In this document: positions 3,254 through 34,855 of the stretch, in pieces | How the letters are laid out: each line of letters starts with the position of its first letter | How positions within the stretch are numbered: the first letter of the stretch is position 1 | Made by a program: the position numbers and the translations under genes | DNA from: a virus | Taxonomy: Duplodnaviria > Heunggongvirae > Uroviricota > Caudoviricetes | IMG/VR virus record: IMGVR_UViG_3300028601_000019 | Span: 68,130-132,129 of that record | Reading direction: 5' to 3' (one strand) | DNA length: 64,000 bases | Notes under the pieces: model-generated | Databases searched by the model: none | What the model was told of the DNA's origin: nothing | What the model saw: only the letters and a program-made list of their open reading frames with translations

Positions 3254-5041
3254 ATGAACGAACTAAATCCAACATATCTGGAAGCAGATTTCAATTCACT
3301 TAAACAAAAGTTTATTTCAATCCTTCAAAATAATGACACTTTCAAAGACTATAATTTTGAAGGGTCAAATATTACAATGTTGATAGAGCTTTTGTCATAT
3401 CTATCAGAGCTTAATACATACTATGTTAATAAGCTTGCTAAAAATATGTTTTTAGATACTACTGATGTATATGAAACGGCGTCTTTAATGGCTAATCTTA
3501 GAGGCCACTATCCAAAAGGTTATATTGCTCCAAAAGTTAAATTAATTATTGATGTTACAGTTGATGAATTTTCTGTAAGTATTCCAAACCCCGGAGATCA
3601 ACTTTATATTCCTAAATATTTTCCATTTGAAACTGGTTTACAATATAATGATGAAGACATCTTTTATATTACACCCAAGGATTATACATTTTCAATTCCT
3701 GTAACAGCTACTGATACATATCAGATGGAAATTGAATTGAAACAAGGTGTTATTGAAACTCTTTCCTATACTGGGGAAGATGTAATTAACAATGTAATTT
3801 ATCTTCCTTTTTATTCTTTTGACCATGACACTGAGCCGTATGATGAAGAAAGCTCTATTGTTCTTTATGTTAATGGTGAACCATGAACACGGATAGAGAA
3901 TTTTATTGATGATTATTCTAATCTTGAAGATAATGATAAGGTATACAGATTTGAATATAACAAATTCCAGCAATACTGCATAAGATTCTCTACTGCTCAT
4001 TCTATTCCTAAAAGTTCTGACCAGATAAGAATCTTGGCTCTAAAAACTTTGGGCGATGGTGGTAATATTGGTGCATTTGTAATGAGTGAATTTGAAAACA
4101 TTCAAAATCTTCCTTCTTTAAATGGGAATACGTTTGAATTTACAGATAACTATTTCATTAGAAACATTACTAAAAACTATGGGGTTTGGGCATCAAGAAT
4201 TTCTATTGAAAATAGGGAAACTTCATACAGTTCATCAAGTCCAGAAACGATTTCTGAAATTGTTAATAGCTCTACAGGAGTTCTTCAAAGCCAATATAGA
4301 AATGTTACACGAACAGATTATAATAAGTTTTTAGAAACATATCCAGATGTAGTAAAAGCTAATTCATGAGGAGAGAGTGAGGTTAACCCTTATAACACTC
4401 AAGAATATAATAAAATCTATCTATCAGTTCTACCAAATAGATGGGATAGTTCTACTATTTTAGTAGACGAAGATAGTTGGGTTATAACTCCAGGGCTTAC
4501 TGCAAGTATTGATATTCCATCTGAATATACTTCATTATTTACACAAAAATTAAAAGAATATTTAGAACCTAAAAAATATTTAAATTCATTTGAAACCTTT
4601 GTTCTTCCAGAACTAGTATATTTTATTTTAAGAATAGGAATCAAAGTTAAACGACTATATAATTTTACTACAGTTAAAAATGATGTAGAAGCAAAACTAC
4701 AATATTATTTTGAAAACTATAATAGAAACTTTAATGAAGTTATAGATTTTAAAGATATTTTTAATTTTATAATGGATATAACTAATGTTTCTTCTACTAA
4801 TTCTTTTACAAATATTAAGGGTATTGAAAACTTGGTTATTAGAGATATAATGACATTTACTCCTTCTATTACAGCAGACAAAACAGTTATATATGAGCCA
4901 AATGAAATGAAATTATATCCACAATATACTCAAGAAATAGGATCTATTTCAAATGACAATCTTTTAAGACCTATTAAATTAGGTTTTAATCAATTTCCAA
5001 TATTGATTCCAGAAGGATGCCAATATGAGAACGAGGGTTAG
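3254..5041 (+). CDS. 6: Baseplate wedge gp6-like, 595 aa, code 4
   Basis: DFNSLKQ...DYNFEGSNITMLIELLSY, VNGEP-W, ANS-W-GESE (TGA 3884, 4367). Three track ORFs share one frame. Confidence 0.9.
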
Positions 5042-5043
5042 TA

Positions 5044-7788
5044 ATGTACGGTAAATTTTCAGAAATTCCTTATTTCTTAATAACAACATATTTTTCTTCA
5101 CTTGCATTTATAGATAAAGATGCAAGTGAATTACATTCTATGGTAATTGGGCCAAGAAGAACTATTGTTACTAAAGGTGCTCCTGTTCAAGAAATGTTTG
5201 TTAAAGATGAGCAATATGGGTATAGACAAGTTTGGTTAACTCCTGTTGCAACAAATAACAATGAATTTAGTGTTATAAAAAGTAATATAATTACAACACC
5301 ATCTACCACATTTACTGAAATATCTGGTGATTCATATTATTTTAAAATTTATGACATTGTGTCAGAATCAAATTTTATTGAAGATGGTGATGAAATTTAC
5401 ATTAGAAAGGATAGCCCTTTTTATTTTTGAATTCAAGATAAAGCAGAAGATCTATTTGAGGATTTATATTCTAAAGAATTTATTCTTAGAAATTTTATTA
5501 ATACAGATAAAGATTTTATCTATTTTGGAAAAATTTATAGTAAATCATACCAGAATGATCTTTTTATGATTGAATATTACAACATAAAAGATTTCATGGT
5601 TGATATGGTTCCTGTACACCAACAAACCCCAAAGTTCAAAGAGTTTTTAACTTTGTTTGGCGATATGATATTCAATGAGATATATTCTCTACAAAAAAAT
5701 ATTTTTTCAATTTTAGATCCTTTTAGTATTGATGACAGATATTTAAATCATCTTTCATCTTTATGTGGGATTTCGATTGATGATTTAGATTTAAATTTGA
5801 TAAACAAAAGAACTTTGGTTCATGAGTTGATAAATTTATTAAAATCTAAAGGATCATTTTTAGCATTAAGATATCTATGAAAGTTGGTCACAAACAACAC
5901 TTTAAATATTATAAATTTTTATGAAATTTGACATGATAAGACTATTGAAGGAAATGTTGCTCTTTTAGATAGGAAAGAGATTCCTTGATATGGTTATTAT
6001 AATGTTGAGAAAGAAGACATTGATGAATATATTACTCAATGGACAGATAAGTATCAAAGTTTTCCGTATCCAGAAAATTTAGATACATATACTTTAGCAA
6101 CACAATATAAAGTAGAGATTGATCTAACTAAAGAGCCTATTCATCAAAATGAAATTTTCAATGAAACTCTTGCAAACAGAATTTACGAATATTGGGAAAT
6201 TTATAGACCTATTAATAGGGTAGCAAACTATAATGTGTTTGTAAGCCCTATTACTGACTTAACACTAAGAAATATAAGTCTGTATAATACAGAGAAAGAG
6301 GCATATCTTCTTTCTAAGTCATATTTGCAAAATATTTCAGAACCCAACACATCTATTAGAGTTTTTAGAGTTACTATTGAAGATGGTTTTGAATATATTA
6401 TAAATCATAACTTGAATAGCAAATATGTTCTTATTCAACTATATTCATTTGATCTTAAAATGGTAATTCCTGAGCATGTAGAATATATTGATAATAACAA
6501 TCTTAAGATTAAATTGAGGGGGGCACAAACAGTATTCGCTCTTTTAAGAAGACCAAAATTTAATGCTGTTCGTCCATGAGGAACAGAAGATTCTGGAATG
6601 GATACTATGTTTTATGTATCCGACTTCGTAGAAAATCAATACTTTATAATGCCAGATACATTTCAGATTATAGATGAAGTTGAGTATGTTATTGATCCAA
6701 CTAACGAAATGGTTGCTTCATTGTCAAAATATTCATCCGTTCATTTACAAACTAATGTAAGTGATACATGGAATGTTGGCCACAGTTTAATTGGAAATTT
6801 CTTTGTTTCTGTTTATGATACAAGCAATAAGAAAATTATTCCAAAATCAATTTATATTGTGGGTCCAAATCAGGTTTCTATTGAATTTGAAGAACCATCA
6901 ACAGGATATGCTGTATTAACAAATTCTGATGATACGTTAACATTCTTTTCTATGTCCCCAGTTACAGAAATGGAATTTGAACATGGACTAGATTCTGAAT
7001 TATTGAATGTTCAAGTATATGATCTTTCAAATAATGTTGTTTTTCCAAAAAATATAATTTATTTAAATTCAAATAACATAAGAGTTGAGTTTGACGATCC
7101 AGAAGAAGTATTTGTTGTAGTTAAGGTTGCAGATAATAACCCATCTAAATATAAATGAACTATAACACATAACTTAAATAGAAGAGAAGTTTTGACACAG
7201 TTTTCTAATGATGATGGTGTTCAACTTGTTCCTGTTGGAGTAAATTTAGCAGATATCAACGAAGTTAAGACAACCAATAGTGGTGGTGTTGCACTCATGA
7301 CAAATTATGATTATCTTCATAATCAACCAACATCAAGTACTGAATGGGTTGTAGAGCACAATTTTGGTCATATTGGTGCATTGGTAAATACATATGACTT
7401 TGAGAACAATAAGTTATATCCAAAAGAAATAAGATTAGTTGATGATACAAAACTTATTATTTCTTTTGAAGATGCTAAATCTGGATATGCTGTTGCTGTG
7501 TCAATTGGTAGTGTATACTTTAGTAAGATTATTAAAATAACAAAAGTGCGATTTTCTAATAGTGATAGATCCCAAACTATAACAAAAGATATTACAGAAT
7601 TCTGAGACAATGATGATTATATGTTCTTCAGATTAGACTTACCTAAAGAAGTTGAATTGAGTATAAATAGAATTGAACTAATGACAATAGAAGAGGAAGT
7701 AATGTTTGAAACAAATTGCTCTACTATTTTTAAATCTAAGAATTTTTCATTAAGTTCACTCTACAGAATTTTTAAAGGAGTTTTATAA
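5044..7788 (+). CDS. Large baseplate wedge/structural protein with repeated H-N/G-L/F beta modules, 914 aa, code 4
   Basis: Five track ORFs in one frame joined through 7 TGA. It has a gp7/P2-gpI-like segment (ILDPFSIDDRYLNHL...KSKGS) and repeats YIINHNLNSK, WNVGHSL, FEHGLDS, WTITHNL, WVVEHNFG. Confidence 0.75.
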
Positions 7789-8688
7789 ATGAGATACCAT
7801 TTTTGACAGTTTTTAATAAACCAAGAGGGTCAACCAATTAATGATGCTGATATTTCAGTATATGCGGCCGGAACTACCACACCTGTTGTAGTTTATTTGG
7901 GTGAATTGTCTTCTGAAACTGCTAATGTAGCACCACAAGTTAAAACAAATTCCAATGGGTTTTTTGAGTTTTGAATAGGTGATGAAGAAGAAGCAATTGG
8001 ATATACAAGAGGAACTAAATTTAAGATTTCTTGAAATAGAACAGGAATTGCATCTGGAACGATTGATAACATTGAGGTTTTTCAAACTACGGAGGGTGTA
8101 GATGAAACAGATGCCGATTCTACATTTAAAAATAAATTGATAAGTAATGCCTTGGCTTATCAATTTGATACTCATTCTAAACATGATGTTCTTGATGATG
8201 GGTATCCAATTCACGGACTTATGATGGTGGATACAAATTCAACAGAAAATGTTTTTAATAAGGTAATAAGTAACAAATTAGCTAATGAATGGGAAATTCA
8301 TAAAAATTATGAATTTGATTCATTTTCTCCATCTGTGTTAGATAATTCTGCTCATAACCTTCAACCAATAAATTATAATTCTACAGATTCTAAATTTAAT
8401 AAATTAATGGCAGATAATATATTATATGACCTTAAAGCCTCTATAGATCTTTTAGGTGCATATACAGAAACTATCGAAGTTACTGGATGAGTATTGAATG
8501 GTGGAAGTGGAAATTATGAATATAATATTATTCATAATTTAGATTGGGATTTTCCTGCTATTGATTGTTGAGACATAGATTCAAGAATGGTCTATGCCCC
8601 AACAAATATTTATTCTGAAGATGCTAATATAATAAAAATTGAAAATCAAACCCCTCAACGATTAAAAGTAGGAATTTCAAGGAGATAA
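7789..8688 (+). CDS. Virion structural protein, 299 aa, code 4
   Basis: ATG abuts the previous TAA. Open through 5 TGA. Contains a C-terminal IIHNLDW module. Confidence 0.7.
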
Positions 8689-32673: not shown

Positions 32674-32714
32674 GTAATAATGAATTTGAATATCAACGGA
32701 GGAGATCCCTATTA

Positions 32715-34043
32715 ATGTCAGTTTTATCGCCAGAATATTTAGAAAAGGTAATTTTAAAATCATTTACTGAAGATAAGCATTTTTGCACTCTACTCTCAAC
32801 TGAAGGAGAAGAACGATATTTTGAAAATGTCGAAGCATCTGAAATTTTTACTATTGTAAAAGAATACTATCATAAGTACATAGATCTTCCAACAAAAGAT
32901 GTCATTATTAATTCTTCCAAAAAGTCTAAAGAAGTTGCTAAGTATTTGGAAGACATTGCTAGTGTTGAAACTTCAAATGATATGTTTCTATATGAGCAAA
33001 CCGAAAAATGGCTTAAAGAGTCAGCGTTCAAATACGCCATTATGGACAGTGTTGATCTTGTTAAGAAAAAAGATGATATTACAAAGGCCCGAGAATATAT
33101 TGAACAGGCTTTAACCAAAACATTAAAAAAGCAAATTGGTTTGGACTATTGAGGAGATTTATCTGAAAGATTAAAAAGGATGTTTTCTGCAGAAAATCAG
33201 AGAATTCCAACATATTATCCTCAACTAGATGAATTTATGAATGGTGGGCTGCCGCCATATACTCTTTCTGTTATATGTGCTGCTATGCATTCAGGTAAGA
33301 GCAATTTGATGGTGAATATGGCTACTAGACAGATGATGCATGGTCATAGTGTCATGTATCTTAGTTTGGAAATGGCTGAAGATGAACTTGCAAAACGCGT
33401 AGATGCTCAATTAACTAAGTTAGATATCAATAGAATTTACGATACAAAAAAGAAAGAATTTCTTACTAATTTAAAGAATGTTAAAACAGGGCAAGAAGGA
33501 AGATTGTTGTTTAAACAATTTCCTACTGGAACAGCAAGTGTTAATGATTTTAGAAGTTATTTGTATGAACTTCAAATGCGTAATATTAACATTGATTGCA
33601 TTTATGTAGATTATCTTAATATTATGAAGCCAACTTCCTCTAGTGGCGATGGCAATCTTTATACAGATGTAAAGAAAATAGGAGAAGAACTTAGAGCGTT
33701 AACATATATATTTAAATGTCCTTGCGTTACAGCTACCCAAACTACCCGTTGTTTAGAAATTGGTTCCTCTGTCACTATATTATCTGACGGCATTGAAAAG
33801 GATATAGAAATAAAGAATATTAATTATGGGGATGCTATAAAAACAGATTGTGGATTTAATGTAGTAACACAGGTTTTTCCAATAGAAAAACAAAAAACGT
33901 TTAAGGTAATATTAAAAGATGGAAACTCAATATCATGCAGCAACAAACATCTTTTTCCTGCCTATGATAAATATGGTAATTTCATAGATAATATGAATAT
34001 GTATGAAATCAAAAGCAGAGGATTATTTTTAATGACTGAGTAG
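32715..34043 (+). CDS. 41: Replicative helicase gp41 N-extein (345 aa) fused to split-intein IntN, code 4
   Basis: Two track ORFs joined by TGA 33150. Walker A AMHSGKS, YLSLEMAE, IYVDYLNI, GEELRAL, TATQTTR, then intein Cys1. Confidence 0.92.
33750..34040 (+). mobile_element. Split intein N-part (97 aa, gp41-1-like)
   Basis: CLEIGSSV...GFNVVTQVFPIEKQKTFKVILKDGNSISCSNKHLFP: blocks A and B with the TxxH-equivalent SxxH. Ends at TAG 34041. Confidence 0.9.
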
Positions 34044-34406
34044 CCGTTACACATTCTTTTGAAAATTTATGTAGGTATTCCGGGTTCAAAAGAATTTTAT
34101 TTAAAAGAAGAATCTTTTAGATATTTCTATGATTTCACCATTCCAAGATTAAAAATTTGTATAGAATATAATGGTGAACATGTTCATCCAAACCCAGAAT
34201 GATTAGAAGAAGATATTGAAAGATGAAATAAATGACGACATTTTTATTCACATAGCTCTTCTGATGTTATATATAAAAAAGATAAAAATAAAATTGATGA
34301 AATTATTAACTGCGGCTATAAAACACTAATAATATGATTTGAGACTAATATAGACAAAAATATTTATCTATGTAAAAAATTTATATTAGATAATCTAAAC
34401 AAATAA
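34044..34406 (+). mobile_element. Vsr-like (PD-(D/E)xK) homing endonuclease between the intein halves, code 4 (4 TGA); absent from the ORF track
   Basis: YFYDFTIPRLKICIEYNGEHVH...W...K.....GYKTLII-W. No ATG; the candidate start is TTG 34059. Confidence 0.8.
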
Positions 34407-34422
34407 AAAGGAGACTTTATTA

Positions 34423-34827
34423 ATGGGTAAATTTGTGCAGATTTCAGAAATTGAAGATATAGGTGAATGTGAAACTATAGATATAACAACATCTGGAAAT
34501 AATTTGTTTTTTGCAAATGGAATTTTAACACACAATTCCGGGATAACATCACAGATAGGTGAAATTACTTTTGCAATGTTATCGGAGTCTATTGGAACTG
34601 CTGCAACCGCAGATTTCATTATGGTTCTTGGTAATGATAGTGATTCACTTGTATATCAAAATGAAATTTTTTATAAAATACTTAAGAACAGACTTGGCGG
34701 CAGAGTAGGAGAAATTTCCAAATTTTATCAAGATGATAAGTCTTTAAAAATGTATGATTCTGTTGAATTAGATAATTGGATTTCAGATGCATCTATTTCT
34801 GGTGCATGTGTAAATATGGCAAATTAA
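34423..34827 (+). CDS. 41: Split intein IntC (38 aa) + helicase gp41 C-extein (96 aa)
   Basis: Own RBS (aaggag). TIDITTSGNNLFFANGILTHN/S, then SESIGTAATADF and KILKNRLGG. Confidence 0.92.
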   Translation: MGKFVQISEIEDIGECETIDITTSGNNLFFANGILTHNSGITSQIGEITFAMLSESIGTAATADFIMVLGNDSDSLVYQNEIFYKILKNRLGGRVGEISKFYQDDKSLKMYDSVELDNWISDASISGACVNMAN

Positions 34828-34855
34828 AAATAAATAAAATAAAGGAGAATATATT

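Follow-up and report, generated by a model that had tools for sequence, protein, structure and literature searches.

The window, a stretch of 64,000 nucleotides from IMG/VR virus record IMGVR_UViG_3300028601_000019, contains a replicative helicase gene that is interrupted by a 787-bp mobile element. The element carries the two halves of a gp41-family split intein, IntN (N-terminal) and IntC (C-terminal), and between them an open reading frame (ORF) related to homing endonucleases. The helicase is very probably rebuilt by protein trans-splicing. We favor this reading because intein-free alleles of the gene exist, both intein halves match solved structures in the PDB, the catalytic residues are kept, the halves evolve under purifying selection, and the two are predicted to form a complex. 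The same lines of evidence bear out the proposal of an earlier note, made from the letters of the window alone, that a natural gp41-family split intein resides in a fractured helicase gene here. The coordinates of the locus are collected in Table 1.

Table 1. Features of the split helicase locus; positions are those of the window.
Feature	Position	Strand	Description
N-extein	32715..33749	+	helicase residues 1-345 (DnaB_C/gp41-type), ends TATQTTR
Whole inserted element (IntN + endonuclease remnant + IntC)	33750..34536	+	787 bp, missing from intein-free alleles
IntN	33750..34043	+	97 amino acids (33750-34040) CLEIG...LMTE, Cys1, block-B His67, TAG stop 34041-34043
Truncated homing-endonuclease ORF	34059..34406	+	115 codons from TTG, four TGA=Trp, TAA stop, no Shine-Dalgarno
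Shine-Dalgarno AAGGAG	34408..34413	+	9 nt 5' of ATG at 34423; direct sequence reading
IntC	34423..34536	+	38 amino acids, block-F Asp20, terminal His37-Asn38
C-extein	34537..34827	+	Ser+1 + helicase residues 347-441, 96 amino acids in total, TAA stop

The upstream gene (32715-34043, + strand) encodes 442 amino acids when TGA is read as tryptophan; under translation table 11 its frame is interrupted at the TGA at 33150-33152. Pfam DnaB_C matches residues 164-348 of the encoded protein (E = 1.4e-21), and PHROG 19 (DnaB-like replicative helicase) spans residues 2-345, unbroken across the TGA (E = 1.9e-64). The helicase part ends in TATQTTR and is followed directly by IntN (CLEIG...MTE) and its stop codon. 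The downstream gene (34423-34827, + strand) encodes 134 amino acids in a different frame: IntC, ending in ILTHN, comes first, followed by SGITSQ and the remaining C-terminal end of the helicase, and this C-extein matches positions 519-580 of the PHROG 19 profile. The layout of both genes, including the AAGGAG in front of the second, is as the earlier note had read it. Joined, the exteins give 345 + 96 = 441 amino acids, the length of the uninterrupted helicase on a related viral contig (L004) and in agreement with the product of about 441 residues, joined at TTR-SG, that had been anticipated. The N-extein is identical to the L004 helicase at 301 of 345 residues, and the C-extein to its C-terminal end at 80 of 96.

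The claim that the genome is recoded (TGA=Trp) agrees with the data: the helicase TGA lies in frame, and in the middle ORF each of the four TGA codons coincides with a tryptophan position of the family consensus. The helicase codon specifies Trp146, and the same in-frame codon, in an LDYW or LNYW context, is present in L004 and in two split relatives (L005 and L008, described below). Since Trp146 is encoded by TGA, the helicase would be made only once TGA is decoded. The 64-kb window was searched for tRNA genes, and none was found. The locus is the sole gp41-like helicase locus found in the 164,754-bp record, which derives from a T4-like phage; the phage therefore probably depends on this single, split helicase locus.

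We next consider the boundaries of the element. Three viral contigs (L002-L004) carry an uninterrupted 441-amino-acid helicase that reads TTR-QGVISEIGEISFAM (TTR-QGVISEIGE) with no insertion; their best segment is 84% identical to the window N-terminal protein, and 87% identical over the N-extein. The joined window exteins and the L004 helicase, both of 441 amino acids, align without gaps at 381 of 441 identical positions (86%). Furthermore, a sediment-metagenome contig (run X4) is a natural empty site, in which position 33749 is joined to position 34538 with a single G between them. This contig reads Arg-Ala(GCC)-Gly, so that its +1 codon differs from the serine codon of the window. Because it is missing exactly 33750-34536, the insert has precisely the predicted splice boundaries. 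Removal of the element thus restores a contiguous homologous helicase, as judged by both the L004 comparison and the X4 empty site. A blastn search of GenBank phages with the locus returned no match.

The intein halves carry the residues expected for splicing. Cys1 of IntN is residue 346 of the upstream protein, directly after the TATQTTR end of the N-extein, and the block-B motif S64-N-K-H67 aligns with CSEEH of gp41-1. IntC ends in ILTHN/S (the slash marks the junction), that is, in a His-Asn terminus followed by the Ser+1 nucleophile, and the block-F aspartate is also present. The halves are separate genes: TAG ends IntN, and IntC starts 380 nt later in another frame with its own AAGGAG. 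For both halves the top PDB matches are the gp41-1 intein structures 6qaz and 6riz, with 6qaz the best for IntN (E = 3.6e-12, 25 of 54 core residues identical) and for IntC (E = 2.2e-6, 20 of 33 identical). Other searches were less productive: the Pfam intein model stayed under its cut-off on both window halves, tblastn against phages gave a single weak match for IntC (48 amino acids) and six distant matches for IntN, and a word-index search with IntN recovered the window's own protein only.

Forty-two relatives came from a database search that used the C half as query, and 36 C halves were aligned. D20 and N38 are invariant in all 36 C halves, and C1, S64, and H67 in the four aligned IntN sequences. 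Twenty-eight of the 36, the window included, read THN/SG, and Ser+1 is present in every C half at this R/SG site; the other eight read TKN/S and belong to a second site ~17-20 residues downstream. Between the window and L005, the ratio of nonsynonymous to synonymous change (dN/dS) is 0.24 for IntN and 0.03 for IntC, similar to the exteins, with synonymous differences (pS 0.61-0.62) near saturation. On these sequence comparisons, the intein halves are under purifying selection. Lastly, IntN and IntC were predicted to form a complex with an ipSAE of 0.89, against 0.00 for the best control; of 80 solved complexes, 58 score this high, as do 2 of 110 mismatched pairs. The prediction runs agreed on at least 97% of contacts, and the predicted local distance difference test score (pLDDT) of the partners was at least 82.

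Collectively, these results suggest the following course of events. The insertion point of the 787-bp element in the replicative helicase gene immediately follows the Arg of TQTTR. Each half of the helicase would be translated on its own, probably from a single transcript, with IntC served by its own strong ribosome-binding site. IntN (97 amino acids) and IntC (38 amino acids) would then join into one HINT fold and enter canonical class-1 trans-splicing, in which Cys1 forms a thioester, Ser+1 attacks the thioester, and Asn38 cyclises. This would yield a seamless helicase of 441 amino acids, joined as TQTTR-SGITSQ. Spread of the element was presumably once the work of its endonuclease gene, which has since lost its entire N-terminal part. 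Between 32400 and 35200, promoter-like sites occur at the chance rate (19 seen versus 18.7 expected), and no terminator-like site was found between the helicase halves.

The middle ORF starts 15 nt past the IntN TAG in the same frame as IntN, and all four of its tryptophan codons are TGA. The earlier note had described it as an intervening endonuclease; what is present is an EDxHD/Vsr-like homing-endonuclease catalytic domain alone, with the N-terminal part of the enzyme missing. A phmmer search of 1.84 billion representatives found 738 homologues. Among the 150 listed, the matched domain in most is the C-terminal ~110 residues of proteins of 240-560 amino acids, and about a tenth are also short. 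The 240-450 residues that precede the catalytic domain in most homologues are missing from the middle ORF, which corresponds to the last ~115 residues of homologues of 240-573 amino acids. Against the 573-amino-acid gene that occupies the same place in L005, it aligns to residues 450-566 only (46% identical). In relatives, the lost part is probably the DNA-recognition region.

The AlphaFold2 (AF2) model of the middle ORF has a pLDDT of 93.8. Plain Foldseek with this model found nothing at E ≤ 0.001; its highest-ranked entry was Vsr (E = 0.05). After VIA re-alignment, the best structural match was the catalytic domain of I-Bth0305I (3r3p; Z 8.1, root-mean-square deviation 3.3, 84 of 97 residues aligned, 24% identity) and the second was Vsr (Z 7.1). 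I-Bth0305I is the prototype of the EDxHD homing endonucleases (PMC3239194; PDB 3r3p); an intron encodes it, and a large region precedes its catalytic domain, whereas the window ORF is the catalytic domain alone. A phmmer search of the PDB with the middle ORF gave chance-level matches only, Pfam holds no family for it or for four full-length homologues, and the family profile matches 3r3p (E = 0.06) and Vsr (E = 1.3) weakly. Eight residues (E17, D30, F31, E41, G44, H48, W64, and K83) are invariant in 36 family sequences, and the middle ORF keeps all eight.

We consider it fairly probable that the middle ORF is a decaying remnant. Besides the absence of the large N-terminal region that most homologues have, its TTG start lacks a ribosome-binding site, and two relatives at the same site point to progressive loss of the endonuclease: L008 retains a shorter, start-less piece beginning at IIEYNGE, preceded by the same post-stop sequence, and L009 has only a 45-nt spacer and no endonuclease. 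A less likely possibility is that the 115-amino-acid ORF encodes a minimal protein, consisting of the nuclease alone, that still works, perhaps as a dimer or in partnership with a full-length paralogue; in that event the element might have kept its mobility, or the nuclease might be domesticated. What weighs against decay is that a 115-codon frame has stayed open in DNA of 22.6% G+C with every family-invariant residue in place, which fits a long-dead pseudogene less well. Its four TGA codons on family tryptophan positions and the confident AF2 model also speak for a working protein, and the isolated catalytic domain of I-Bth0305I forms a stable dimer (PMC3239194). The short homologues point the same way, although many of them may be fragments from short contigs. 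The missing Shine-Dalgarno sequence is not peculiar to the window either, as the full-length 573-amino-acid gene of L005 has none and starts 17 nt past the IntN stop; and a full-length paralogue of at least 395 amino acids is encoded in the same genome. Because the endonuclease is reduced to a 115-residue nuclease domain, the element is most likely fixed and immobile in the lineage of the window.

The window TTG start reads MKIY, as does the endonuclease start in L005, from which it might descend. In full-length relatives, however, the sequence at the domain boundary is E-IYVG-I, so this match may be a coincidence or the trace of a microhomology-mediated deletion. Taken together, the relatives form a natural series at one site: empty (L002-L004 and X4), with a full endonuclease (L005), with the catalytic domain only (the window), with a shorter piece (L008), and with none (L009). 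Two further loci have ORFs of 407 and 447 amino acids. L005 is split at the same site as the window, its C half is 84% identical to that of the window, and between its halves lie the 573-amino-acid gene, with 13 TGA codons, and a 53-amino-acid ORF. The latter, an acidic ORF at L005:3837-3998 between the endonuclease gene and IntC, has no counterpart in the window.

A bolder proposal is that the intein, with its Arg(-1)/Ser(+1) junction, is a fast and orthogonal intein of the gp41 family not characterized before and that, separately, the 115-amino-acid ORF is a functional minimal EDxHD enzyme tied through its TGA tryptophan codons to the recoded phase of infection. We regard this as improbable. 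Should the ORF prove to be a minimal nuclease, a gene of a mobile element would have adapted to an alternative genetic code and be confined by it.

It is also improbable that no protein splicing takes place, either because the intein halves merely hold the helicase pieces together non-covalently or because the gene is dead. The two halves of a split intein bind each other tightly unaided, and what the predicted complex addresses is association rather than chemistry. However, no residue that the chemistry requires has been lost (C1, S64, H67, D20, and N38 are invariant), the dN/dS of IntC is far below one, and the characterized relatives gp41-1 and gp41-8 splice efficiently (PMC7090010). The finding of a single helicase locus in the record likewise argues against a non-splicing or dead helicase gene. 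Some observations do weigh against trans-splicing as we propose it. The record is estimated to be 69% complete, and a second helicase may lie in the remainder. The predicted complex may reflect memory of the solved gp41-1 structures and, as a model, shows likeness to them. Finally, the window intein differs from gp41-1 in its Arg at -1 and its longer IntN tail, so that no splicing rate can be carried over to it. We nevertheless hold to trans-splicing as the best account of the locus.

The reading that one continuous intein ORF only looks split, through an assembly or frameshift error, has a negligible chance of being right: the record is a metagenome assembly and the endonuclease ORF lies in the IntN frame, separated from it by the TAG only, but IntC lies in a different frame behind a TAA stop with its own AAGGAG; contigs of two landfill-metagenome runs from different studies (depths 37 and 9.6) cover 32700-34850 with 0 differences, an agreement that shows assembly reproducibility only, as either run may be the source of the window DNA; and the same split, in which IntN ends at a stop and IntC starts as a gene of its own, recurs in the independent assemblies L005, L008, and L009, together with a wastewater contig (X3, 34341-34586) that reaches from the last part of the middle ORF across IntC into the extein.

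We then compared the locus with known systems. Its split-intein halves lie on the same strand at one locus with an endonuclease gene, here truncated, between them, which is the fractured-gene layout of Dassa et al. 2009 (PMC2677866); the Vsr-like/EDxHD family was first described in such fractured genes in the same study. Every element of the locus fits this class, and it is thus of an already known kind. The window intein shares with gp41-1 the Cys1/HN/Ser+1 chemistry, the position at which the fold is split, and the fractured-gene layout in the helicase of a T4-like phage. It differs in its -1 Arg and in an IntN of 97 amino acids with a longer C-terminal tail. The close resemblance to gp41-1 that had been claimed is moderate in sequence (25 of 54 residues in the IntN core, 20 of 33 in IntC) and does not extend to the insertion point. 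When aligned to a T4-type gp41 and to that of Prochlorococcus phage P-RSM4 (TQTTR-SGF-GS), the window junction TTR/SGI lies three residues upstream of the gp41-1 site. We considered whether the window intein is an allele of gp41-1 and rejected this, given that the gp41-1 junction is SGY/SSS (PMC6823396; supplement of PMC7090010).

The junction of gp41-8 is LNR/SAY (supplement of PMC7090010), and its integration point differs from that of gp41-1 to gp41-7 (Dassa et al. 2009, PMC2677866). Like the window intein, gp41-8 naturally splits a helicase of the DnaB/gp41 type, and its two halves flank a free-standing endonuclease gene; both inteins have Arg at -1 and Ser at +1, and IntC ends in LFFANGILTHN in both. 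Judged by this R/S junction motif, the two inteins may share an insertion point. The window endonuclease is truncated, unlike that of the gp41-8 locus, and the window IntC has 38 amino acids compared to 45 for gp41-8 as printed. About 23 of 54 IntN core residues and 20 of 33 IntC residues are identical between the two, as counted by hand on a machine-read sequence rather than in a tool alignment. By these counts, the window intein would be about equally distant from gp41-1 and gp41-8 (~45% identity in the IntN core and 61% in IntC). The gp41-7 locus is a fractured gp41 without an endonuclease gene (Dassa et al. 2009, PMC2677866), a stage in the decay cycle of homing endonucleases, and at the window site full-length (L005), truncated (the window and L008), and absent (L009) endonucleases are all seen; relative to gp41-7, the window is an intermediate state in which the catalytic domain only persists as an intact open frame.

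A cultured T4-like phage, one of the GenBank phages in which distant relatives alone were found, provides a further comparison. In Shigella phage ESh36 (ON528746, Tequatrovirus), which uses the standard genetic code, the helicase is encoded by two coding sequences annotated 'DNA primase/helicase' with a 333-amino-acid ORF between them, and the halves include a related IntN and an IntC ending in GILTKN/S. The ESh36 insertion (AE/C ... TKN/SAGLPATADF) lies ~17-20 residues downstream of that in the window, at the same second site as the eight metagenomic C halves. One intein family is thus seen at no fewer than three insertion points within ~20 residues of gp41-type helicases, namely R/SG, SGY/SSS, and SE/S.G..ATADF. 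The SGY/SSS point, that of gp41-1, is taken from the literature, and the other two were seen in the alignment, ESh36, and L009. Inteins at the SE/S.G..ATADF site have Lys in place of the penultimate His (TKN).

Few protein-ligation tools are as fast as the split inteins of the gp41 family, and there is demand for orthogonal pairs (PMC7090010). With identities to gp41-1 and gp41-8 of only ~45% in the IntN core and 61% in IntC, the window pair is a reasonable extra candidate for such a tool, one of dozens visible in metagenomes. New here are the intein sequence, the catalytic-domain-only state of the endonuclease, and the host, a phage with TGA=Trp; the mobile element lives in this recoded phage and itself uses TGA for all its tryptophans. 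The locus leaves current understanding unchanged.

Several further features of the record were noted. The full-length EDxHD/Vsr-like endonuclease paralogue lies near the record end (G000:C1 ~163538-164725; L010:1477-2664, - strand). It has YGEEEG-type N-terminal repeats, is 47% identical to the window remnant over the catalytic domain, and adjoins a TnpB-like ORF. Beside the other TnpB copy is a free-standing 143-amino-acid ORF (L015:1399-1830, - strand; G000:C1 ~4637-5068) that the Pfam intein splicing domain matches weakly (E = 0.027) and that lacks obvious exteins and a terminal Asn. Outside the window, a 663-amino-acid large terminase (L014:94-2085, - strand; G000:C1 ~6448-8439) has an apparent contiguous mini-intein of ~150 amino acids in its P-loop region (RQSGK/CVSWDT ... 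VKSHN/STT). The intein model matches it weakly, and Pfam Terminase_6N matches this terminase only from residue 235.

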